DNA of 64,000 bases, from NCBI GenBank assembly GCA_965204375.1, contig OZ241986.1:5312001-5376000 (forward strand), written 5' to 3'. A program made the position numbers and the translations under genes. This DNA is from Candidatus Latescibacterota bacterium (lineage in GTDB: Bacteria; Latescibacterota; UBA2968). The notes below the pieces were generated by a model, which worked only from the letters and a program-made list of their open reading frames with translations, made no database searches and was not told the origin of the DNA. Of the stretch, positions 1,175 to 11,908 are shown piece after piece. Position 1 is the first letter of the stretch. Each line of letters opens with the position of its first letter.

Positions 1175-1249
1175 GGGCATGATAAACAGGAGTCAGTTGT
1201 CGAGGTCGTCCAGGTCCTCGCGACGGTGAACGGCCTTATTGAGGTAAAG

Positions 1250-4200
1250 ATGCCCAAACGCAAAGGATTCCCCCCCCGTTTATTCCTCACCCTCTGTATC
1301 GCCAGTCTGCTGAACTTGATTTCCTCGTGGTCTCTTTTCGCACAGACAAGTAGTTTTTCCCTTTCTCTGGATCTAAATGGTTCTGATGGCGATCAGGCTA
1401 TCCAGTCTCTTGATGTATTTCCCAATCAAGTTATTTTTGTTCAAATTTTTGGCAAAGATATTCAAAATGCCAACAGTCTTTTGACGCGCTTTGAATACCC
1501 TGCGACACAGGTTGTTTACGAGGGGTTTGATGCTGGCGATGTATTGTCCAATGCCTCAGTACTCTTAGAGCCAGGTTCGGGTTTTGTCGAGATCGATATC
1601 GCGTCTTCTAATGGGTCTGCAACGGTCAAAAGCGGTCTGATGGGCACGTTGCGTTTTCGTACGACAGATACGTTTGCGGGTACGCGGATTCGGTTGGTGC
1701 GTGCGGAACTGGGGCGGGGGGGACAGTTTGAGACTGTGACCTTATCTGTTAGTGTAGCCTTACAGGTGGCTGCTTCCTCTTCTCTGGACATTGATGAGAG
1801 TGGGGTTGTGGATTTTTCCGACTTTTTGGTATTGGCGGGTGCCTTTGGGGCACAACGGGGCGATACACGGTATGAAGATCGGTTGGACCTGGATCGCAAC
1901 GGGTCTATAGAGTTTTCAGATTTTCTCGAATTTGTTGGCGTGTTTGGAAAAAAAGTGTCACACCCATTCTTACCGGTCTGTGACCGCACCGCCCAGGTAC
2001 GCGATGCGATTGTGGCGGCAGTATCTGTAAGCACCTGTGGCGATGTGACAGAGGTGCATCTCGTAGCGATAGATTCTCTCAGTGTGGCCGGGGCAAACCT
2101 CTCAGAACTGCAAGCCAATGAATTATCTGGCCTGACCGCTTTGACATGGCTCAATCTGAGGGGCAACCAACTGACCAGGCTACCGGAAGGCATCTTTGAT
2201 GGCCTGACTGCCCTGACATGGCTCAATCTGGGTAACAACCGCCTCAGCATAATCCCATCCGAATTGGGCAATCTGACCAATCTTACGTATCTGCATTTTG
2301 GGCGCAATCAGTTGAGTGGTGAGATTCCATCCGAATTGGGCAATCTGACCAATCTTGAGTACATGTCTCTTGGTGGCAATCAGTTAGAGGGTGAGATACC
2401 AGCAGCATTGGGCAACCTATCCAATCTTGAATACCTGTCCCTTAGTGGCAATCAGTTAAGTGGTGAGATTCCATCCGAATTGGGCAACCTGTCTAATCTT
2501 AAAGACCTGGGACTTAACAACAATCAGTTGCGTGGAAAGATTCCCGTGGCATTGGGCAACCTGTCCAATCTTGAGCGTCTGGGTCTTTACAACAATCAAT
2601 TGAGCGGTGAAATTCCGTCCGAATTGAGCAGGCTGACAAAGCTCACAGGCCTGTGGCTTGGCAACAATCCATTGCGTGGCGCGCTTCCCCATAGCTTGAT
2701 AGAGCTGACAAATTTGGAGGAATTTTACTTTGGGGGCGGGGGATTATGTGCGCCTCTTGATGCGACCTTTCAAAAGTGGCTTCAGGGCATTGATGAGGTC
2801 AATGGCCCGACTTGCATCCCTGCGTCACAGCGCGAGGCATTGGTGGCTCTGTACCGGGCGACAGACGGCGACAATTGGACGGATAAGACAAATTGGCTAA
2901 GTGACAAGCATCCTTCGACCTGGCATGGCGTCGGGGTTTCCGAGGGTTGGGTTACACGTTTGGATCTGAGGAAGAACAATCTGACGGGCATGCTTCCTGC
3001 CGAATTGAGCAATCTGACCCATCTTGTTTACTTGAATATAGGCGACAATTCATTGCGTGGCGCGCTTCCTCATAGCTTGATGGAACTGACAAAATTGGAG
3101 GAATTTCACTTTAGGAGCGGGGGGTTATGTGCGCCTCTTGATGCGACCTTTCAAAAGTGGCTTCAAGGCATTGATGAATTCAATGGTCCGACTTGCACCC
3201 CTGCATCACAGCGCGAGGCATTGGTGGCTCTGTACCGGGCGACAGACGGCGACAATTGGACGGATAAGACAAATTGGCTAAGTGACAAGCATCCTTCGAC
3301 CTGGCATGGCGTCGGGGTTTCCGAGGGTTGGGTTACACGTTTGGATCTGAGGAAGAACAATCTGACGGGCATGCTTCCTGCCGAATTGAGCAATCTGACC
3401 AACCTTAGGGAACTGTGGCTTTACGACAATGAGTTGCACGGTGAGATTCCATCCGACTTGGGTAAGCTGCCCGACCTTGTGGAACTGGATTTTGGCTACA
3501 ATCAATTGAGTGGTGAGATTCCATCCGAATTGGGCAATCTGTCCAATCTTGAGAAATTGGGTCTTTACAGCAATGAGTTGCGCGGTGAGATTCCGTCCGA
3601 ATTGAGCAGGCTGACAAAGCTCAATAGCCTGTGGCTTAACAACAATCAGTTGAGTGGTGAGATTCCATCTGAATTGGGTAAGCTGACCAACCTCGAGGAA
3701 CTGGATTTTGATTACAATCAATTGAGTGGTGAGATTCCATCCGACTTGGGTAACCTGTCCAGTCTTGATGGTCTGGATCTTTCTAATAATCAATTGGGCG
3801 GTGAGATACCTGTTGAATTGGGCAAGCTGTTCTTCCTCAGATCGTTGTCGCTTCGCGACAATCAATTGAGCGGTGAGATACCTGTGGAATTAGGCAAGCT
3901 ATCCTATCTCGATGCACTGGATTTTGGCAACAATCAATTGAGTGGTGAGATTCCATCCGAATTGGGTAAGCTGACCAATCTTGAATGGCTGTGGCTTTAC
4001 AGTAATCAGTTGCGCGGTGAGATTCCATCCGAATTGGGTAAGCTGACCGACCTTGTGGAACTGGATTTTGGCTACAATCAGTTGCGCGGTGAGATTCCAT
4101 CCGAATTGGGCAATCTGTCCAACCTTACAGACCTGGGACTTAGCAACAATGAGTTGGAGGGTGAGATTCCATCCGAATTGGGCAACCTGTCCAGTCTTGG

Positions 4201-4669
4201 GTGGCTGCGGCTTGACAACAATCAGTTGAGTGGTAAGATTCCATCCGAATTGGGCAATCTGTCCTTCCTCAAAGAGCTAGAGCTTCACGACAATCAATTG
4301 AGCGGTGAGATTCCTGTGACATTGGGTAAGCTTACCAACCTTGAGGAACTGTGGCTTAGCAACAATCAGTTGAGTGGTGAAGTTCCTGTTGAATTGGGCA
4401 ACCTGTCCAGTCTTGAGTGGCTGTGGCTTAACAACAATCAGTTGAGTGGTGAAGTTCCTGTTGAATTGGGCAACCTGTCCAGTCTTGAGTGGCTGTGGCT
4501 TAACAACAATCAGTTGAGTGGTGTACTTCCCCACAGCTTGATAGGGCTGACGAAACTGGAGAAATTTTACTTTGGGGAGGGCGGAGGGTTATGTGCGCCG
4601 CTTGATGCAGCTTTTCAGATGTGGCTTCAGGGTATTTCAGAAACCAGTGGTCCGAATTGTTCAAGATAG
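1250..4669 (+). CDS. Secreted cohesin-like + EF-hand/dockerin + plant-type leucine-rich repeat protein
   Basis: Signal peptide (MPKRK...SLFA); beta-sandwich domain; paired DxDxSGxVDFSDF motifs; many 24-aa LxxLxLxxNxLSGEIPSELGNL repeats; LRRNT-like caps (REALVALY...W.GV). ATG at 1250 follows GAGG; the ORF opens at 1226. Confidence 0.9.
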   Translation: MPKRKGFPPRLFLTLCIASLLNLISSWSLFAQTSSFSLSLDLNGSDGDQAIQSLDVFPNQVIFVQIFGKDIQNANSLLTRFEYPATQVVYEGFDAGDVLSNASVLLEPGSGFVEIDIASSNGSATVKSGLMGTLRFRTTDTFAGTRIRLVRAELGRGGQFETVTLSVSVALQVAASSSLDIDESGVVDFSDFLVLAGAFGAQRGDTRYEDRLDLDRNGSIEFSDFLEFVGVFGKKVSHPFLPVCDRTAQVRDAIVAAVSVSTCGDVTEVHLVAIDSLSVAGANLSELQANELSGLTALTWLNLRGNQLTRLPEGIFDGLTALTWLNLGNNRLSIIPSELGNLTNLTYLHFGRNQLSGEIPSELGNLTNLEYMSLGGNQLEGEIPAALGNLSNLEYLSLSGNQLSGEIPSELGNLSNLKDLGLNNNQLRGKIPVALGNLSNLERLGLYNNQLSGEIPSELSRLTKLTGLWLGNNPLRGALPHSLIELTNLEEFYFGGGGLCAPLDATFQKWLQGIDEVNGPTCIPASQREALVALYRATDGDNWTDKTNWLSDKHPSTWHGVGVSEGWVTRLDLRKNNLTGMLPAELSNLTHLVYLNIGDNSLRGALPHSLMELTKLEEFHFRSGGLCAPLDATFQKWLQGIDEFNGPTCTPASQREALVALYRATDGDNWTDKTNWLSDKHPSTWHGVGVSEGWVTRLDLRKNNLTGMLPAELSNLTNLRELWLYDNELHGEIPSDLGKLPDLVELDFGYNQLSGEIPSELGNLSNLEKLGLYSNELRGEIPSELSRLTKLNSLWLNNNQLSGEIPSELGKLTNLEELDFDYNQLSGEIPSDLGNLSSLDGLDLSNNQLGGEIPVELGKLFFLRSLSLRDNQLSGEIPVELGKLSYLDALDFGNNQLSGEIPSELGKLTNLEWLWLYSNQLRGEIPSELGKLTDLVELDFGYNQLRGEIPSELGNLSNLTDLGLSNNELEGEIPSELGNLSSLGWLRLDNNQLSGKIPSELGNLSFLKELELHDNQLSGEIPVTLGKLTNLEELWLSNNQLSGEVPVELGNLSSLEWLWLNNNQLSGEVPVELGNLSSLEWLWLNNNQLSGVLPHSLIGLTKLEKFYFGEGGGLCAPLDAAFQMWLQGISETSGPNCSR
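2670..3400 (+). repeat. Intragenic direct duplication, period 381 bp
   Basis: 2670-3019 is near-identical to 3051-3400 (LRR C-cap, linker, N-cap). Confidence 0.9.
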
Positions 4670-4690
4670 GCGTCGCTCGGATTGCTTTTT

Positions 4691-5557
4691 TTAATATGGA
4701 CGAAAACCGCGCACCATGAATCCATTGTCTTTTTTTGCCTCTGCCGCGCGTTTTGCCGATTCTGCGCGGTTTTTTGTGGTGGTGCCGCGTATGACGACGT
4801 AATCGTCGGCTCTGCGGTAGCGGTGTATGAAGACGGGGCGGGGTTGGTCCGAGTGGTTTTGTTTGGAGCCGTGAACGGTTTTGACGTGGAAGAAGATGGC
4901 GTCACCGGGTTGACCGGGTATTGGGAGGGCGCGTTCCCAGGGCCATTCGTCGTCTGCGAGTCCCAGGTGCGAGAAGGTGTCGATGTGGTCGAGTTGCCCC
5001 AGTTTGTGAGAGCCGGGTACGACGTGGAGGGCGCCGTTTTTGAGGTCGGTGGGGACGACGTAGGTGAGGATGCCAACGGGTCCTTCGTATCGGTGTTCAA
5101 AATACGCCGAGTCCTGGTGCAGGTGTTTGGGGTGGCCTCCGACGGGTTCTTTGTAGAGGCATTGCCCGTTGCCGTAGAGTTCGATGTTGGGTCCGAGGAT
5201 GGCTTCGACTATGTCGAGGGTGGGGGGGTGAAATGCCGAGCGAAAGAAGGTCGCGCTGGTGTGGTAGTTGATGCCGAGGACCATGATTTGTCGGTCCCGT
5301 TCATAATTTTCAGGCGCGGGTATAAAGAGGGTGTTGTTGGGCGTGCGCCATCCTTCGGGTATTGCGCTGGCTTGATCGAGGAGGGCGAGGGATTGCCTAA
5401 CTGTGGCGTCGATGTCGCGGTGAAGCGCGTCAATGTATTCGCGGAGCAAACCTCGTATGACTATCGCGCCATGCGTTTTGAATGCCTCGGCTGCACGCTG
5501 AAGGTCGATGTCTTTGGACTGGAAGTCCAGATCGTTTAGAGAGATGGTTTGGGTCAT
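4691..5557 (-). CDS. Phytanoyl-CoA dioxygenase (PhyH) family Fe/2OG oxygenase
   Basis: HQD motif, NGALHVVPGSH, GDAIFFH..TVHGS. Confidence 0.9.
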   Translation of the reverse strand: MTQTISLNDLDFQSKDIDLQRAAEAFKTHGAIVIRGLLREYIDALHRDIDATVRQSLALLDQASAIPEGWRTPNNTLFIPAPENYERDRQIMVLGINYHTSATFFRSAFHPPTLDIVEAILGPNIELYGNGQCLYKEPVGGHPKHLHQDSAYFEHRYEGPVGILTYVVPTDLKNGALHVVPGSHKLGQLDHIDTFSHLGLADDEWPWERALPIPGQPGDAIFFHVKTVHGSKQNHSDQPRPVFIHRYRRADDYVVIRGTTTKNRAESAKRAAEAKKDNGFMVRGFRPY

Positions 5558-5572
5558 GATATAAACTCGGTC

Positions 5573-7102
5573 TTACGATTGGTTTGGATCATCCCGTAAA
5601 GTTTCTAAAATTTCACTGCAGTATCCTTCAACAATCGTACGCTCATGGGGTTGGAGTACCTCATCACGATTATGAGCCAGGGGATTTCTACACTTCGCAA
5701 GTAACTTTTGGCGTTCCTCCCAGTAATTCTTATCCTTACCAAAGATAGGCCGAAAGAGGTCATCCCATAAACCTCTCGCACGAATAATCTCAAACAAATG
5801 TGTGGGATAAGTAAAATCGATCAGATTATGTGATGCTCTATCTCCAAATGATTTTTCTTCTTTCTGCTGCGCTTTACGGCAGTCATCAAAAATGTTCTTT
5901 AAGTTTGGACGTGTTTTCCCCAGTTCGTCAATCCAGTTCACCCCATACGCATTGGACAGGGTGTTTGTAATTACCTCACGAAGCGCTTTCTCAGTGTCTC
6001 TCCAGATCGGCCATAAATCTGCGGCAAATTCTGTTGCACGCTCTTGGAGCTTAAGATAATCGTGAAAGTGTTCTGAATAGGCAGCGTAAGTTCCATTTTG
6101 GGTTGGCTTAATCAATCCGTAGTTTTGAAGTTCAGTCACATCAGTTCGCTTGACATCGATAACGGGACCAAACAAAATTTGGATTAACTTATTAAGGGTC
6201 CCTTCCCCCCGCAGTAAACGAATCATGTCGTCGTAATGTTCAAAGAAGGACTGGCTAATCGTATCGGCGGCGTTATCGACATTAATTTTTTGATTTTCAC
6301 GAAATATCTCGACAATTTCACAGCCTAACATTTCAAGAAGATAGGGGTGCGCCCCGCAATAGAATAACACACGTTCTCGGTCAGCATCAGATAGTGATAT
6401 CCCGATAGACGAAAATTGATCAAAGTAGGTTTCTAAGTCCTCCTCACGGAACGTTGTTAAACGTTGAACCTGAAAAATGTTATGAAATGGGGAGTTGGAT
6501 CCAGCATCTTGCTCAATATCTCTAATACTCCGACGAGAGGTTAAAACGAGCGATAGCCGATAATCCGGGTAATCAGCCAGCTCTCGTAAGCGCTGAAAGG
6601 CCGTATCCCCTTTGAAGAGAAGTCGAGCCTGATCAAATTCATCAATAATGAAAAGGGTGCCATAGCCAGCTTCTTGGACTTTCTTAAAAAAGCGTTTAAT
6701 TTGGTTCCACGGATCCTGAGTCTCCAATGCGCGGTCGGCTAAACGTTGAATTTGTTCTGTGAGCCAGTTTAAGTCCTCCATTTCATCAACACATTCAGTT
6801 ACAAGCGAGCGGAAGAAATTCAACGACTGATTATACGAAGAAAGCCCTATCCAAATCGGAAGAACTCCCTTCTGGGTTAGCTTATCTTTCTGCTCAATGA
6901 TCGTTTTGTAAGCCAAGCTGCTTTTGCCGATACGATGTATCCCAATGATAGCCAGGTTCCCCGGATCCGTGGGCTGAATGATTCGACTTTCGATAACCCT
7001 TATAATTTCCTTACGACCGATGAAGCGTTCTCCGCGAACAATTTTACCGTAATCTGCAAATGGATTTTCAAACGCAGAATTCATTCTGTTCTCCAATTTC
7101 AT
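5573..7102 (-). CDS. STAND-like ATPase with C-terminal Swt1-like HEPN domain
   Basis: NPF...FIGR, Walker A GIHRIGKSS, Walker B IIDEFD, GAHPY, winged helix, then E..LR and RNPLAH (Rx4H, 5672-5689). Confidence 0.8.
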   Translation of the reverse strand: MKLENRMNSAFENPFADYGKIVRGERFIGRKEIIRVIESRIIQPTDPGNLAIIGIHRIGKSSLAYKTIIEQKDKLTQKGVLPIWIGLSSYNQSLNFFRSLVTECVDEMEDLNWLTEQIQRLADRALETQDPWNQIKRFFKKVQEAGYGTLFIIDEFDQARLLFKGDTAFQRLRELADYPDYRLSLVLTSRRSIRDIEQDAGSNSPFHNIFQVQRLTTFREEDLETYFDQFSSIGISLSDADRERVLFYCGAHPYLLEMLGCEIVEIFRENQKINVDNAADTISQSFFEHYDDMIRLLRGEGTLNKLIQILFGPVIDVKRTDVTELQNYGLIKPTQNGTYAAYSEHFHDYLKLQERATEFAADLWPIWRDTEKALREVITNTLSNAYGVNWIDELGKTRPNLKNIFDDCRKAQQKEEKSFGDRASHNLIDFTYPTHLFEIIRARGLWDDLFRPIFGKDKNYWEERQKLLAKCRNPLAHNRDEVLQPHERTIVEGYCSEILETLRDDPNQS

Positions 7103-8670
7103 CCATTAACGACAAGCCATTCTTTGAAAAGAGCAACCTGAATTTGGTAATATTGCCCCTGATCGTGTTTAACGACATCTCGTTTCACGAGATCGTCCAG
7201 AATTTTATCAACGCGTAAACAGGTTTCGCAGTCAATTTTATCCCGATGACAGGGCCCTGTCCTGCTATTGGCGGCAATGGCCTTGAGGACTTTTAATGCA
7301 TCGTCATCTGAGATAGCATCCGTTGATGTATCTCCCGAATTAATGAGGTTATCAAACTTGTCTAAACCAAACGCATTTACACCCTGTATCAGTTCATTTT
7401 TAACCTGCTCTACATCCGCCTCTGTTACCAGTTCGGCATGTTTAAGATTCATATATTCAACCAGACGGTTGCATAAGATTTGAATGTAGAATGGACTGCC
7501 CGCGGTGAGATCTAAAATCCGTTCAATTGCTTGCTCTCGGTAACGACTTTCACCCTGTCTGCCACCTATACGAATGGGATCTTCGATGAGTTTAGTAGCG
7601 TCTTGTTTGTTGAGATAGGTGACGCGTTCATCCTGTGTTGTGCCAAACTCGTTGGGGAAATGTTCCTTGAACTTTGGCATCACATCCTGACCCACCAAAA
7701 CAGCACTGAAATAGTTTGCTTGCAACAAAGCTTTCCAGTTTTGCATGAATGCTTCGTGAATTTTACCAGCAACGATTCGGTCGTAAATATACTGGAATTC
7801 ATCTATCAAGAGCACAACCCTTACACCACGCCAATCCTCTTGTCTAGAGACGAGGCGATTTAGGGTTTTAAAAGTGTCTTGAAAGCATTGTAGCGGGGCG
7901 GGATGATTATAGAAATCAAGATCATCGGGTATAGAGAGGTCCAATGAACTAAAATCATCAGCAGATCGATCTTCAATCGCGTATTCTAACTCTGTTAAAA
8001 TGCGCTTGAGAATCTGGTATAGGATAGGGACTTCGGAATCCGGATCCTGAATCGTCCCAATGTTTCCCAGATCAAGGATAAGTAGCTCATTATCTTTTTG
8101 GAGTAACGTCTTCAGGTGATACAAAACCGAAGACTTACCAGATCGTTTTTGTCCAAATACTATGACACACTTGCTCTGCAAGCGAGATTCTTGAATAGTC
8201 TGTGCAATGTTTTGGATTAATTCATCACGTCCAAAAAACATGGCTGGATCGCCGACAATTCCCCCTTCGGCATAGGCAGCATAAGGGTTTTTAATCGTCT
8301 CAAAATCATCTTGGGGATAGAGGCGAATTGAGAGATTTTCGACCTGCGTTTCTTCTTGTTCATCTGCACGGGTACGATACCGGGCATATTTGGGTTTTTC
8401 CTCATCAGTTGATGTATTTGAACTGACTGGAACCGGATCTTCACTTTGTCCATTTTGCGGAGTCTCTGTCAAAGACTGCCAATAGATAACCCGCTCAATG
8501 GGTATCACGGTTGGAGACTGGTTTTCCTTGACTTCAATTTTGATATGCCTCCGCCCAATTTCTACGAGTTTGCCCGAGATGTCGATGCTACCTTGAAGAG
8601 AAAATTTGACTTGGCTTTCAAGGGGAACCTGTTCCTGTATTAATCGAGCATTCATATTTTCTCCCATCAT
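7099..8670 (-). CDS. STAND-like ATPase with short N-terminal beta domain and C-terminal winged helix
   Basis: NPY...FFGR, Walker A GQKRSGKSS, Walker B LLIDEF, GSPFY; ATGA overlap with the downstream gene. Confidence 0.8.
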   Translation of the reverse strand: MMGENMNARLIQEQVPLESQVKFSLQGSIDISGKLVEIGRRHIKIEVKENQSPTVIPIERVIYWQSLTETPQNGQSEDPVPVSSNTSTDEEKPKYARYRTRADEQEETQVENLSIRLYPQDDFETIKNPYAAYAEGGIVGDPAMFFGRDELIQNIAQTIQESRLQSKCVIVFGQKRSGKSSVLYHLKTLLQKDNELLILDLGNIGTIQDPDSEVPILYQILKRILTELEYAIEDRSADDFSSLDLSIPDDLDFYNHPAPLQCFQDTFKTLNRLVSRQEDWRGVRVVLLIDEFQYIYDRIVAGKIHEAFMQNWKALLQANYFSAVLVGQDVMPKFKEHFPNEFGTTQDERVTYLNKQDATKLIEDPIRIGGRQGESRYREQAIERILDLTAGSPFYIQILCNRLVEYMNLKHAELVTEADVEQVKNELIQGVNAFGLDKFDNLINSGDTSTDAISDDDALKVLKAIAANSRTGPCHRDKIDCETCLRVDKILDDLVKRDVVKHDQGQYYQIQVALFKEWLVVNG

Positions 8671-8699
8671 CTACTGCTATCATGGATGCTTTGACCTTC

Positions 8700-8728
8700 A
8701 TGATACTCAAAGCAACGCAAACTGTCAC
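8700..8728 (-). promoter_or_regulatory. Putative sigma70 promoter for the ATPase pair
   Basis: Minus strand GTGACA-17 bp-TATCAT, about 30 bp upstream of the start. Confidence 0.45.
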
Positions 8729-8749
8729 GCATATTTTGTAATTTCAGAC

Positions 8750-9310
8750 CTAAAATTCGAAAGTCTGTGCGATCCTTTTTGCAGTTTCCGAGGCTGTTAA
8801 TCTGGTATTATTAATTTTTACGTAATTTTGTGTGTAAAAGAAATCGTCATTTGAATTCAGTTTGTAATTCTGATCACTCTTGAGCAGATTTTTTTTCGAC
8901 GCTTCAATATCGCGTTTTGAAGGTTTCTGTTTTAGTCTTAATGGAGATGCGTTTCGCTTGAGGCGCTCTTCTTGATCTGCTTCGAGTTCGACGAAATAGA
9001 TTACCCCTCCTTTTGCTCGAAAAATATCGCAGCATTGGTCTATAAAGTTTTTGTCCGATGGATGGTCGAGTGCCCAGACATAGGTGAAGATCAGGCCCGG
9101 TAAATTACTGTTTGCGACTTCCTCAAAAATGCGTCGTCGAAATTCGTTTACTAACCGGCGAAATTCAGGCTGACCAAAATCAAAAAAATTAAGCGCGATT
9201 TCAATGGTCATATGATTGTGAAAGACCTTCAAGCCCGTGAGTTTCGCCAGTTCATACCCCACAGTCATTTTTCCGACAGCAGGGGGTCCGAATACAATTA
9301 CGAGTTTCAT
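8750..9310 (-). CDS. P-loop kinase, shikimate/nucleotide kinase-like (AAA family)
   Basis: MKLVIVFGPPAVGKMT; true start placed at 9310, the ORF extension overlaps the next gene. Confidence 0.85.
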   Translation of the reverse strand: MKLVIVFGPPAVGKMTVGYELAKLTGLKVFHNHMTIEIALNFFDFGQPEFRRLVNEFRRRIFEEVANSNLPGLIFTYVWALDHPSDKNFIDQCCDIFRAKGGVIYFVELEADQEERLKRNASPLRLKQKPSKRDIEASKKNLLKSDQNYKLNSNDDFFYTQNYVKINNTRLTASETAKRIAQTFEF

Positions 9311-9321
9311 GGGATTATTCA

Positions 9322-10296
9322 CTATAGAAGTTCCGAGAGGGTTATGCGGCGGTTTTCTTGCATTGATCGTTCGGCTGCGAGACCGATCAGCGCGGCGTTG
9401 ATGGCGGTGCGGGCGTCGGTTTGCCAGTTGCCATTGTTGATGTCGTTGAGGAATTGGGTTTGGATTGTGATGTCCGATGGTTCGGTTGCGGGCAGGTCGT
9501 GTTCGCCTGATTTTGTCGATAGGCACCAGCCATCGCTTCTGTTGATGAGTGTCCCGCCTGTCATGACAATACGACGATATTCTTCGGCATTGGAAATTTC
9601 AATGCCTCCGGCCCAGTTCCACTGACCAATACCGCCGTTTTCAAAACCGACTGTGACGGAATTTGCAAAGCTGTCGTAGGTGCTGTCATCGCGCAGATTT
9701 TCGTAGTGGGCTGCAGCTTCAACCCAGGTGGCGGGACCAAAACAATCGACGAGGGGATAGATGTTATAGACAAAAAAGAGGGCTGGTGGACCCGATATGG
9801 AAATATTAAAGAGGATTTCAGGGCGTTGACCTCGGCCCGGGGTGAGGCGAGTGAATAGTGCGGTTATGAGATTTCCCGTTTGAGCTGTTTGTCGTTTGAG
9901 TGCCCGGTGAGATGGCGAGAGTACTTCGTTGTGGCCCACGCGGAGGACGCAAGACGAGTGGTCGATTCTGGAAAGCAATTGCCGCGCTTCATCGATATTG
10001 CGCGCCGCGGGATATTCGGTAAAAACGTGTTTGTTTGCATCGAGCGCAGCAAGGGCGATTTCACTGTGGGTGTCGTTGTAGGTGCATATTGCGATGGCGT
10101 CAATGTCGTCGCGTTTGAGTATGTCCCGATAGGTCGGCAAGTAATCTATACCGTGCTTGTTGGCGAGTGCTGGCCCGGTTTCTATGTTTCGCGCAGCAAT
10201 GGCAATGAGTTCAAATCCTTCGGTTTGGGAAAAATGCTGGGTGTGGCGACTCGCCATACCGCCTGAGCCGATGATGCCAATGCGAATGTCGTTCAT
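9322..10296 (-). CDS. Gfo/Idh/MocA family oxidoreductase
   Basis: IRIGIIGSGGM Rossmann motif, KHVFTEYP; GGAG RBS before ATG 10296. Confidence 0.85.
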   Translation of the reverse strand: MNDIRIGIIGSGGMASRHTQHFSQTEGFELIAIAARNIETGPALANKHGIDYLPTYRDILKRDDIDAIAICTYNDTHSEIALAALDANKHVFTEYPAARNIDEARQLLSRIDHSSCVLRVGHNEVLSPSHRALKRQTAQTGNLITALFTRLTPGRGQRPEILFNISISGPPALFFVYNIYPLVDCFGPATWVEAAAHYENLRDDSTYDSFANSVTVGFENGGIGQWNWAGGIEISNAEEYRRIVMTGGTLINRSDGWCLSTKSGEHDLPATEPSDITIQTQFLNDINNGNWQTDARTAINAALIGLAAERSMQENRRITLSELL

Positions 10297-10366: not shown

Positions 10367-11908
10367 TTAGTTGGGCGATATGTCGTCTGAGAAGAGTCCG
10401 CCAGTGAACTTGAGCATGACTTTGAAGGATGCCAGGCCCACGGGACGCCCATCGGGATCTACAATGGGTATGTGGCGGAAGCCGTGCAGAGACATCAGGT
10501 GCAGGAGGTGACCGATGGGATCAGATGTTTTCAATGCGGTGGGGTCTTTGGTCATCAGGCTATCGACCGTTATTTTTGTCAGGTCTATATCGCGCCCGGC
10601 AACTTTTTCAAAGAGATCGCCCTGTGCGAATATGCCGCGCAATAAGCCCTGTTTGTCAACGACCAGCAAACACCCCAGATTTTTGCTGCGCATGGTCTCG
10701 ACGGCATCGGCTACCGAAGTGTCGGCGGATACGCATTCGGGGGCTGGCAGATCGAGCGATGAGATCGGATCGTAGAGCAGTTGCTGAAGCGCGGTGCGCG
10801 GTGCCATGGGGTCTTCTTGTTCGATATCGGGAATGATATTCGATGTGGGCAATTCTTCGTGGACTTCTTGCACGGTTTCAGCGTCGGGACCTTCGGGAAC
10901 AATCCAGGTGTCTGTCGCGTGATACAGGGCATTGAGATCGCCTGCGCCGCGTTCTTCAACCGCCTGACGGCCCTGTGCGATGACTTGGTCTTCATAAATT
11001 GGACGTTCGACACAGCGAAATACACCGAGTGGCACGGGATAGTCCGGATGCGTGAGGCGGCTGAGCAAATACGCATGGGCTGGATTGTCCAGGGTTTCGT
11101 CGTGTGTGAGCAAGTCGCTTTCCGATACGCCATTGCCCAGGGTTACGACTTCGGGCGCGAGCTTATTGACGCGGATGCCTTTGTCGCGGTCTTTGCCAAA
11201 AATGATGGGTTGGCCGTGTTCGAGGATCACGGTCTGATCGTCTTTGACATCTGCCTCAGTGGCAAAAAAGAAGGCACCGTCGTTGTAGATGTTGCAGTTC
11301 TGGTAAATTTCGACAAAGGATGTGCCGCGGTGTTCGGTGGCGCGTTTGAGGATCTCGGCCATGTGCTTGGTGTTGCGGTCAACGCTGCGGGCGACAAAGG
11401 TGGCTTCGGCTGCCAGGGCAACGGAGATGGCATTGAAGTCCTGTTCCACAGAGCCCATGGGCGACGAATAGGTGCGTGTGCCCGGCGGCGATGTGGGTGA
11501 GTATTGTCCTTTGGTGAGGCCGTAGATCGCATTGTTGAAGAGTATGATGTTGAGATCGACATTGCGACGCAGCACATGCAACAGGTGATTGCCGCCTATG
11601 GATAGGCTGTCGCCATCGCCGGTGATTACCCATACGTGCAGGTCGGGATTGGCTACTTTGAGGCCAGTCGCCACGGTTGCCGCACGACCGTGAATGGTGT
11701 GCAGACCGTACGTGTTCATGTAATAGGGGAAGCGGCTGGAGCAACCGATGCCCGATATAAAGACCATATCTTCTCGCGCAATGCCCATTTCGGGCAACAC
11801 GCGTTGCATCTGTGCAAGGATGGCGTAATCACCACAACCGGGGCACCAGCGCACTTCCTGGTCGGATACGAAGTCTTTTCGCGTCAGTGTTTCAATAGCG
11901 TCTGCCAT
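10367..11908 (-). CDS. korB: 2-oxoacid:ferredoxin oxidoreductase beta subunit fused to a C-terminal CBS pair
   Basis: WCPGCGD, GIGCSSR, GDGD TPP motif; after an acidic linker, two CBS repeats (MTKDP, FRHIPIVD). Confidence 0.9.
   Translation of the reverse strand: MADAIETLTRKDFVSDQEVRWCPGCGDYAILAQMQRVLPEMGIAREDMVFISGIGCSSRFPYYMNTYGLHTIHGRAATVATGLKVANPDLHVWVITGDGDSLSIGGNHLLHVLRRNVDLNIILFNNAIYGLTKGQYSPTSPPGTRTYSSPMGSVEQDFNAISVALAAEATFVARSVDRNTKHMAEILKRATEHRGTSFVEIYQNCNIYNDGAFFFATEADVKDDQTVILEHGQPIIFGKDRDKGIRVNKLAPEVVTLGNGVSESDLLTHDETLDNPAHAYLLSRLTHPDYPVPLGVFRCVERPIYEDQVIAQGRQAVEERGAGDLNALYHATDTWIVPEGPDAETVQEVHEELPTSNIIPDIEQEDPMAPRTALQQLLYDPISSLDLPAPECVSADTSVADAVETMRSKNLGCLLVVDKQGLLRGIFAQGDLFEKVAGRDIDLTKITVDSLMTKDPTALKTSDPIGHLLHLMSLHGFRHIPIVDPDGRPVGLASFKVMLKFTGGLFSDDISPN

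Follow-up and report, generated by a model that had tools for sequence, protein, structure and literature searches.

The subject of this report is a pair of overlapping genes, here called A and B, in a 64,000-nucleotide (nt) stretch of the genome of a Candidatus Latescibacterota bacterium (contig OZ241986.1, positions 5,312,001 to 5,376,000; "the window" below means this whole stretch). Each gene encodes a P-loop nucleoside triphosphatase (NTPase), and B also encodes a predicted HEPN ribonuclease (RNase) domain. The reading that we favour, with somewhat more belief than doubt, is that A-B is an undescribed two-gene STAND conflict module, similar to the nucleotide-binding leucine-rich repeat (NLR) proteins. 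It would most likely act in antiviral defence or abortive infection, with A as the sensor and B as the executor, and the copy in the window would be a sensor-deleted variant. We infer the defence role from the swapping of effectors on a constant NTPase, from patchy presence and from transfer between phyla. These are features that have been linked to NTP-dependent conflict systems, at least in the sections of PMC7159879 and PMC8195603 that deal with them.

Pairing of A and B

It is clear that A and B are one conserved two-gene unit. At each of the 30 loci for which upstream DNA is available, B is immediately preceded by a homologue of A. This holds for 21 of 21 loci in metagenome-assembled genomes labelled Poribacteria or Latescibacterota (two more loci are cut at a contig end), for the single locus L038, for seven of seven strong Chloroflexota loci, including that of the cultured Dictyobacter vulcani, and for one locus in Longimicrobium (Gemmatimonadota), where A and B are 38 and 33% identical to the window proteins. 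The order, A then B, is constant and the frames usually overlap or abut. The original prediction had proposed conserved pairing among homologues as one of its tests, and these loci bear it out. Furthermore, the two proteins diverge in step, with identities for A and B of 98/97, 64-66/52-54, 55/47 and 38/33% at increasing distance from the window. As a separate observation, the pair at L038 (3236-6148) is followed by a second A-type gene (7001-8215) with no B match after it.

In the window the stop codon of A and the start codon of B share the letters ATGA ("...aat gga tga" overlapping "atg aaa"), an overlap noticed at the outset and plainly visible in the DNA. Internal ATG codons at A M6 (8655) and B M7 (7084) are preceded by GGAG-like spacers that look more like Shine-Dalgarno sites than those of the annotated starts. 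Many homologues start at these two positions, and therefore the overlap may instead be a gap of 14 nt. The genes are coupled whichever start codons are used.

A further clue is that a physical complex is predicted. The modelled complex of A (residues 93-523) with B has an interface score (ipSAE) of 0.76 (0.74, 0.77 and 0.76 in the individual runs), whereas the three controls scored 0.17 at best. Among the calibration cases, 116 of 157 solved complexes and 2 of 215 mismatched pairs attained the mark. Contact agreement is at least 72% and partner pLDDT at least 81. The modelled interface joins NTPase to NTPase (A 127-141, 175-184, 200-230 and 401-440 with B 32-49, 128-137, 166-180 and 205-216) and leaves the HEPN domain uninvolved. 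There is also a natural fusion. P0316, a metagenomic protein of 1108 amino acids (aa) that was seen once, has a B-type NTPase at its N-terminus and an A-type module at its C-terminus, the reverse of the operon order. The A-type module is 47% identical to residues 63-522 of A. The model and the fusion lend support to the hetero-oligomer that the original prediction had imagined, whereas its proposal that assembly triggers RNA cleavage is still a conjecture.

Could A and B be two independent single-gene STAND systems that happen to be neighbours, or do they resemble a toxin-antitoxin pair, with A simply neutralising B and no joint signalling by oligomers? Each protein does have a complete NTPase and winged helix, and similarity between the two is weak and located around the P-loop (BLASTP 1e-4 over 72 residues). 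However, adjacency in the same order at every locus, divergence in step, the fused form and the complex score all speak against independence, as does the fact that A lacks an effector domain and B lacks a repeat sensor. We consider this explanation very improbable.

The nSTAND1 NTPase encoded by A

The hallmarks of a STAND NTPase are a Walker A motif, a Walker B motif (hhhhDE) and a helical GxP domain, followed by a winged helix. The original prediction had recognised two ATPases with intact versions of all of these. This has been corroborated by the retention of the motifs in homologues and by winged helices in the AlphaFold models of both proteins. A is an NTPase of the nSTAND1 clade, matching the Pfam family PF20703 over residues 141-384 with 38.2 bits (cut-off 27.1). 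The Walker motifs are listed in Table 1. The GxP motif of A is AGSPFY, in which G391 and P393 are at least 90% conserved among 47 homologues. No clear sensor-1 "hhhToR" arginine can be seen in A, which has VLVGQD at that place.

A begins with a small beta domain and a linker (residues 1-94). Residues 95-523 comprise the last strands of a beta-sandwich, the NTPase, the helical GxP domain and the winged helix, whose elements lie at residues 487-522 in the AlphaFold model. The model has an overall pLDDT of 86.3, rising above 90 from about residue 120, with a disordered linker and poorly defined residues 1-67. Its best Foldseek matches are ORC1/Cdc6/ORC4, the archaeal ATPases 2fna and 2qen, Apaf-1 and the NRC4 resistosome. 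For residues 1-67 the Atlas gives leads only, namely unnamed clusters of about 75 aa (0.91) and DUF6897 (0.89).

One aspect that is curious is the history of this N-terminal domain. The first 92 residues of A are 92% identical to those of a short-form homologue, P0148, whose NTPase is only 58% identical. Conversely, P0395 and P0243 have NTPases that are 96-98% identical to that of A but share only 51-60% identity with it over the first 92 residues. Sequence comparison thus suggests exchange or fast evolution of the domain. The similarity to P0148 also prompted the idea that A in the window is a chimera. That idea was rejected, because the long alleles P0397 (90 and 96%) and P0398 (85 and 95%) are close to it in both parts, and the window gene can be derived from an allele of this kind by a simple in-frame deletion. 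Nevertheless, the discordance between the N-terminal and NTPase trees is left unexplained by an origin through deletion.

The usual long form of A and its deletion in the window

The usual A protein is much larger than the one in the window. It has about 1500-1600 aa, with a cold-shock domain (CSD) and tetratricopeptide repeats (TPRs) on the N-terminal side of the nSTAND1 NTPase. At the loci labelled Poribacteria or Latescibacterota, 17 A genes are long (1170-1621 aa), two are short (609 aa at L004 and 536 aa at L007, both with an intact B) and two are incomplete (one cut, one split). All six complete A genes in Chloroflexota encode 1193-1698 aa. A search restricted to lengths of 917-2615 aa returned 878 relatives, and the best 120 of these are nearly all of 1200-1670 aa, with TPR families and nSTAND1 and in some cases a CSD. 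The 1587-aa protein of locus L002 serves as an example of the architecture: a small N-terminal domain, a helical region, the CSD (384-449), TPRs (about 530-700), a second helical region, a beta-rich segment and the NTPase. Long alleles also pass the nSTAND1 cut-off (35.3 and 33.3 bits). The original prediction had set the pair beside the usual single-gene systems with TPR or leucine-rich repeat (LRR) sensors. Such a sensor is absent from A of the window, where a Pfam scan finds no repeats of the TPR, WD40 or LRR type, but not from the long members of the family.

A in the window is a recent in-frame deletion variant, and its B is intact. Mapping by blastn shows the window to be collinear with the DNA of L001 and L002 apart from one gap. 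In comparison with the long allele of L001, bases 1520-4714 are missing, which is 3195 nt or 1065 codons, in frame. The lost region comprises the CSD, the TPRs, the helical region and most of the beta-sandwich, and the "sensor ATPase" of the original prediction is thus one without a recognisable sensor. No microhomology is evident at the deletion ends in the junction sequences of L001 and the window. The deletion is real and not an assembly artefact. Contigs from two samples of one study bridge the junction with 0 differences, whereas a contig from another study has about 3.5 kb, the long form, in its place. Lengths also differ among close relatives. Eight alleles share at least 94% identity with A over the NTPase; six of them have 1577-1587 aa and the others 975 and 1287 aa, which implies that the central region of A is structurally unstable.

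What does the deletion mean for the window copy? Perhaps sensing has been lost, perhaps the small N-terminal domain suffices, or perhaps regulation differs in some other way. One rival explanation is that this copy is an inactive remnant, in which loss of the CSD and TPRs abolished sensing and the pair is still there only because little time has passed since the deletion. Such an explanation would apply to no copy but that of the window, and the family as a whole could still serve in defence. The scale of the loss, set against alleles 94-98% identical in the NTPase part, fits a remnant, as does the instability of central A. So do broken copies in other genomes, which indicate that decay of the pair also happens. 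The copies at L009, L017 and L018 are split. At L030 a short A (6785-8687) is followed only by a HEPN-sized piece of B (residues 351-504). At L023 (6001-6864; also in genome G382) B lacks residues 103-390, most of its NTPase domain, beside a 94%-identical A whose N-terminal piece is out of frame with the remainder.

However, several observations do not fit a remnant. Both frames are open and every catalytic motif is intact. The short form is present in two samples. Both A and B look constrained, with pairwise ratios of nonsynonymous to synonymous substitution against L001 and L002 of 0.16-0.17 for the C-terminal part of A and 0.21-0.26 for B, although these values are not assignable to the branch after the deletion. 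Finally, diverged short forms with other junctions and an intact B recur (L004 and L007; clusters P0126 and P0185, which have 18 and 29 members), and this argues that a sensor-less A can persist. We therefore think it doubtful that the window copy is a mere remnant, though the idea deserves serious attention.

A long-form relative may be expressed in situ, although the hint is weak. An RNA library of another study (run X21) contains small contigs that are 95-99% like window positions 6136-6887 and 8228-8543 of B and A, and their loose ends at 8388/8389 continue into long-form sequence. Carry-over of DNA is an alternative.

B and its exchangeable C-terminal module

The second protein consists of an NTPase, a winged helix and a C-terminal helical domain (Table 1). 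Among 67 homologues of B, which are 28-93% identical to it, the arginine R191 of a sensor-1-like LTSRR motif is at least 90% conserved, and G250 and P253 of the GxP motif CGAHPY are conserved. It is less easy to place the NTPase of B in a family than that of A. In Pfam the window protein scores below the cut-offs (ATPase_2, 28.3 versus 33.2; NACHT, 16), and the family matches among the homologues are to nSTAND1 (10), nSTAND2 (8), NACHT (4) and NB-ARC (2). In fold searches it is equally near to ORC/Cdc6.

By profile, the C-terminal domain of B belongs to the Swt1-type HEPN family and is a predicted RNase. The original prediction had arrived at HEPN from the helical character of the domain and its RNPLAH motif, and the profile matches agree with it. 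PF18731 matches 45 of the 67 homologues at E<=1e-3 (best 7.3e-10), and the arginine and histidine of the motif are at least 90% conserved (Table 1). The model is all-helical over residues 365-503, with helices at 365-386, 399-422, 458-472 and 485-503 and pLDDT mostly above 90. As a lead only, neighbours of this region in the Atlas also carry PF18731 (score 0.86).

Relatives of B keep the scaffold of NTPase and winged helix but differ in the C-terminal module. Twenty-eight length variants of B were scanned for such modules (Pfam, E<=1e-4). A Schlafen AlbA_2 domain was found in five (P0276, P0320, P0347, P0355 and P0356), a Ser/Thr protein kinase in four (P0277, P0314, P0379 and P0383), a C-terminal CSD in five (P0272, P0292, P0308, P0315 and P0267), the effector-associated domain EAD7 in one (P0363) and HEPN_Swt1 in two. 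Eight have no Pfam match and five more match only ATPase or nSTAND families; judging from their sequences, these 13 variants may hold unknown effectors. Two Chloroflexota loci have a tandem double HEPN.

Distribution and a variable chromosomal site

The pair spans at least three bacterial phyla, and its distribution is patchy and cassette-like. The B family has 358 representatives at 50% clustering (E<=1e-30). In a sample of the phylum, B was found at E<=1e-60 in 11 of 168 genomes, including the window's own, and at the same threshold in 6 of 20 other genomes of the genus and in 2 of 49 genera. In Chloroflexota it was found at E<=1e-30 in 13 of 301 sampled genomes. The window's own genome has one copy of each gene and no paralogues. 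The only trace of A on plasmids is one match of 23% identity to its NTPase, which lies under an annotated methylase gene.

The cassette can be seen as an insertion or deletion between neighbours that are otherwise retained. In four congeneric genomes (G387, G386, G381 and G374) a conserved 55-nt element lies about 20-30 nt from the PhyH gene with nothing between them. In the first three, an oxidoreductase gene, the element and PhyH are adjacent, and both A-B and the kinase-like gene of the window (8740-9322) are absent. G374 has the kinase-like gene and a Nal1-like peptidase gene without A-B, and G373 has two TldD/PmbA-like genes at the site. The other cargo found here is not defence-like. A low-depth contig with an empty site is also present in run X3, the second of the two samples that contain the deletion junction. 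Apart from A-B, the gap between the Gfo/Idh/MocA oxidoreductase gene and PhyH is a variable site among congeners in its own right (loci L063-L067), and in the window it is occupied by the kinase-like gene and A-B.

This arrangement has a bearing on transcription. The original prediction gave the pair a putative promoter of its own, and a sigma-70-like match does lie upstream of A. However, such sites are no more frequent between 5300 and 9000 (8) than in shuffled sequence (6.9 +/- 2.6), and the hexamers lie within the 55-nt element that relatives with an empty site also have. They belong to the old upstream region of PhyH and are not a promoter imported by A-B, and this part of the prediction has to be given up. 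Because A-B is inserted between PhyH and that region, its transcription is probably driven from there, possibly jointly with PhyH.

A proposed conflict module with sensor and executor

STAND NTPases signal via induced oligomerisation, and HEPN RNases with an Rx4-6H motif act as dimers. The two properties suggest how A and B might work. A would be the sensor, by virtue of its CSD/TPR region, and B the executor, a second STAND/ORC-like NTPase with a HEPN RNase. A trigger, either nucleic acid or protein, would bind the CSD/TPR region and free the NTPase of A, which would then pair or co-oligomerise with the NTPase of B. The resulting clustering of B would bring HEPN domains together and activate their Rx4H sites. 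RNA would be cut and the growth of the infected cell would stop.

This is an attractive scheme, but in addition to the broken copies described above several observations weigh against it. Without the CSD/TPR region, the window copy may sense nothing. The complex score may partly reflect likeness of fold, because side-by-side contacts of the AAA+/ORC type are common in solved structures. The HEPN assignment of the window protein falls just short in Pfam, with 26.2 bits against a cut-off of 27.5. Fold searches with whole B (Foldseek and VIA-wide) return only ATPase matches, aligned over residues 7-330, leaving the HEPN region uncovered, and a phmmer search of residues 355-509 against the PDB gives only a chance-level match (E 0.087). 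No homologue of B was found in viral_contigs or a plasmid collection (1e-10) or in a phage collection (1e-5). Nor are the neighbourhoods clear defence islands. The neighbours in the window are metabolic genes. Around the seven Chloroflexota loci there are 67 ORFs (open reading frames) other than A and B, of which 11 with fewer than 145 aa were left out, and 10 of the remaining 56 match PADLOC models, mostly for generic kinase, ATPase, TPR or helix-turn-helix domains.

What if the pair is instead a cellular device for RNA surveillance or stress response, for example to cold or translation stress, in which the CSD senses RNA and HEPN cleaves it? The CSD of A and the C-terminal CSDs of some B variants are consistent with this, as are the metabolic context and the lack of copies in the phage and plasmid collections. 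The NTPase modules are also strongly conserved across phyla (55-66% identity). However, presence and absence of the pair vary within one genus and leave precise empty sites. Its GC content is below that of the flanks, there is one copy per genome and there is no link to core RNA-metabolism genes. HEPN is also swapped for Schlafen, kinase or EAD7, a pattern that the relevant part of PMC7159879 ties to conflict systems. A stress device consequently seems improbable to us, and a conflict module remains the explanation that we prefer.

A bolder version of the conflict-module reading can be put forward tentatively, as a possibility. In plant sensor/helper NLRs and in NAIP-NLRC4, one NTPase protein recognises the trigger and a second, related one kills. 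Perhaps A-B is a prokaryotic sensor/helper pair of this kind, in which the nSTAND1 sensor with its CSD and TPRs nucleates a hetero-oligomeric, resistosome-like assembly with the executor NTPase and its exchangeable killing effector (HEPN, Schlafen, kinase or EAD7). If so, bacteria would have their own equivalent of the plant sensor/helper NLR networks and of NAIP-NLRC4, and sensor-less natural alleles, that of the window included, could reveal how autoinhibition works.

Relation to known systems

STAND/NLR-like proteins are central to the innate immunity of animals, plants and bacteria. To our knowledge, in those bacterial members that have been studied, a single polypeptide both senses and kills. 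A-B resembles Avs and the bacterial NACHT/NLR-like proteins in having a STAND-type NTPase with a winged helix, TPR-type repeats (in the canonical A), a predicted nuclease-type effector and a patchy distribution. The fold of its NTPases resembles that of Avs3 (8dgc_A, Foldseek 4.6e-5), Apaf-1 and the NRC resistosomes. In contrast to these proteins, A-B splits sensor and effector over two NTPase proteins, and its repeats and CSD are N-terminal to the NTPase. None of the Avs or NLR models of PADLOC 2.0.0 matches A or B at E<=1, or a long A and three B homologues at E<=0.01.

The likeness to the plant NRC network and NAIP-NLRC4 lies in the logic of a recognition NTPase with a related killing NTPase, to which the predicted NTPase-NTPase contact would correspond. 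It is an analogy and not membership, since there is no sequence kinship beyond the STAND fold and the effector of A-B is HEPN. Likeness to ORC/Cdc6 initiators and to archaeal ATPase_2 proteins (2qby, 7jgr, 2qen and 2fna) is confined to the fold, which is no surprise for members of the STAND and ORC clades. Unlike these proteins, which are 12-17% identical, A and B have HEPN and CSD/TPR additions and no replication context.

With the Swt1/Abi2-type HEPN proteins (PF18731; Anantharaman et al. 2013, PMC3710099), B shares the HEPN family and the conserved Rx4H motif. The portion of PMC3710099 on bacterial fusions notes HEPN joined to AAA+ and STAND NTPases and to cold-shock-like OB domains. It names Ava_2192 (HEPN with a DUF499 AAA+ domain, in restriction-modification operons) and proteins with an N-terminal HEPN and a STAND domain. 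B differs from the fusions named there in that its HEPN is C-terminal, on an NTPase and winged helix of about 350 aa, and in that it is paired with an nSTAND1 gene. Another point of contact is the PADLOC candidate PDC-M34. Residues 368-480 of B match the model of its component B (PDLC04592) at 5.1e-10, over profile positions 66-170 of 192, and homologues of B match too. However, the match is limited to HEPN, the model describes a protein of about 190 aa and there is no PDC-M34A match in A or in long A. Full-text searches found no paper that uses the names PDC-M34 or Swt1-like HEPN.

Kinship on the side of A is with the nSTAND1 conflict systems (PMC8195603; PMC7159879). The NTPase of A is of that clade and one B-family variant carries EAD7, an effector-associated domain treated in these papers. 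In their passages on nSTAND1, it forms the NTPase core of single proteins that have Death-like or EAD adaptors, and those passages describe no second partner gene with NTPase and HEPN. We found no description in the literature of an operon of nSTAND1 and NTPase-HEPN genes, although the 589 clades of a 2026 STAND survey preprint (10.64898/2026.01.04.697583) may include these NTPases. The original prediction did not recognise the pair as a named system. In agreement with this, the system models of PADLOC 2.0.0, NCBIfam and PHROGs match nothing beyond single domains of either protein. In NCBIfam nothing is near the cut-offs for A or B (DS41_1_antiphage matches the P-loop only, E 0.02), and PHROGs gives no matches. 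Weak PADLOC matches to PDC-S01, mad8, PD-T4-5 and PDC-S60 were rejected because they cover only the P-loop or short stretches.

The domains and the general STAND logic are therefore known, but a division between cognate sensor and executor NTPases does not appear to have been described. The pair occurs mainly in uncultured lineages, for example sponge symbionts and Chloroflexota. Perhaps this is the reason that it has not been named in screens focused on E. coli-like genomes. If the split of sensing and killing holds, the division of labour of plant sensor/helper NLRs also evolved in prokaryotes, and A-B would offer a simple two-protein system for heterotypic STAND assembly. Exchangeable effectors, and natural alleles that have lost the sensor in part or altogether, would be ready material for such studies.

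The locus in the window

The ORF listing of the window places both genes on the minus strand, with the same limits as in the original prediction (Table 1). The AT-richer block described there, between PhyH and a small kinase gene, is also real. The GC content is 0.39-0.45 over positions 5501-9000, compared with 0.54-0.58 over 4501-5500 and 0.52-0.57 from 9501, and the Pfam matches of the neighbours agree. The PhyH dioxygenase gene (PF05721, 1.2e-28) lies 15 nt downstream of B. Upstream of A are the small P-loop kinase-like gene (AAA_18, below the Pfam cut-off) and the Gfo/Idh/MocA oxidoreductase gene.

Table 1. Positions in the window of A, B and associated features
Feature	Position	Strand	Remarks
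Gene A	7099..8670	-	523 aa; short form of nSTAND1 STAND NTPase
N-terminal small beta-rich domain of A, residues 1-67	8470..8670	-	strands 20-25, 31-34 and 61-67, moderate pLDDT; found in short and long homologues
Deletion junction in A, K94/Y95	8386..8391, between 8389 and 8388	-	blastn mapping and junction sequences
Walker A of A, GQKRSGKS, residues 173-180	8131..8154	-	G173, R176, G178 and K179 invariant in 47 homologues
Walker B of A, VVLLIDEF, residues 285-292	7795..7818	-	D290 and F292 invariant, E291 at least 90% in 47 homologues
Gene B	5573..7102	-	509 aa; NTPase about 13-290, winged helix about 300-355, Swt1-type HEPN (by profile) about 365-503
Walker A of B, GIHRIGKS, residues 54-61	6920..6943	-	G54 and G59 invariant, K60 and S62 at least 90% in 67 homologues
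Walker B of B, LFIIDEFD, residues 150-157	6632..6655	-	F156 and D157 invariant, D154 and E155 at least 90% in 67 homologues
HEPN domain of B (by profile), residues 365-503	5594..6010	-	PF18731, residues 371-479 (1.1e-5); PADLOC PDC-M34B, residues 368-480 (5.1e-10)
Rx4H motif of B, RNPLAH, R472...H477	5672..5689	-	predicted RNase active site; R472 and H477 at least 90% in 67 homologues
A-B cassette as insertion or deletion	5561..8684	-	site empty in congeneric genomes
Conserved 55-nt element with promoter-like hexamers	8685..8739	-	upstream of A; directly upstream of PhyH in cassette-free relatives
Sigma-70-like match, GTGACA-17-TATCAT	8728-8700	-	10 of 12 consensus positions

Two other genes of the window deserve a brief mention. 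On the plus strand, positions 1226-4669 encode a 1147-aa LRR protein with large internal repeats. In a DNA search, its 3' part has many partial matches elsewhere in its own genome and in congeners, and the gene thus belongs to an expanded LRR gene family. On the minus strand, positions 10367-11908 hold a 513-aa ORF of the 2-oxoacid:ferredoxin oxidoreductase beta type, whose C-terminal extension looks CBS-like when its translation is inspected by eye.

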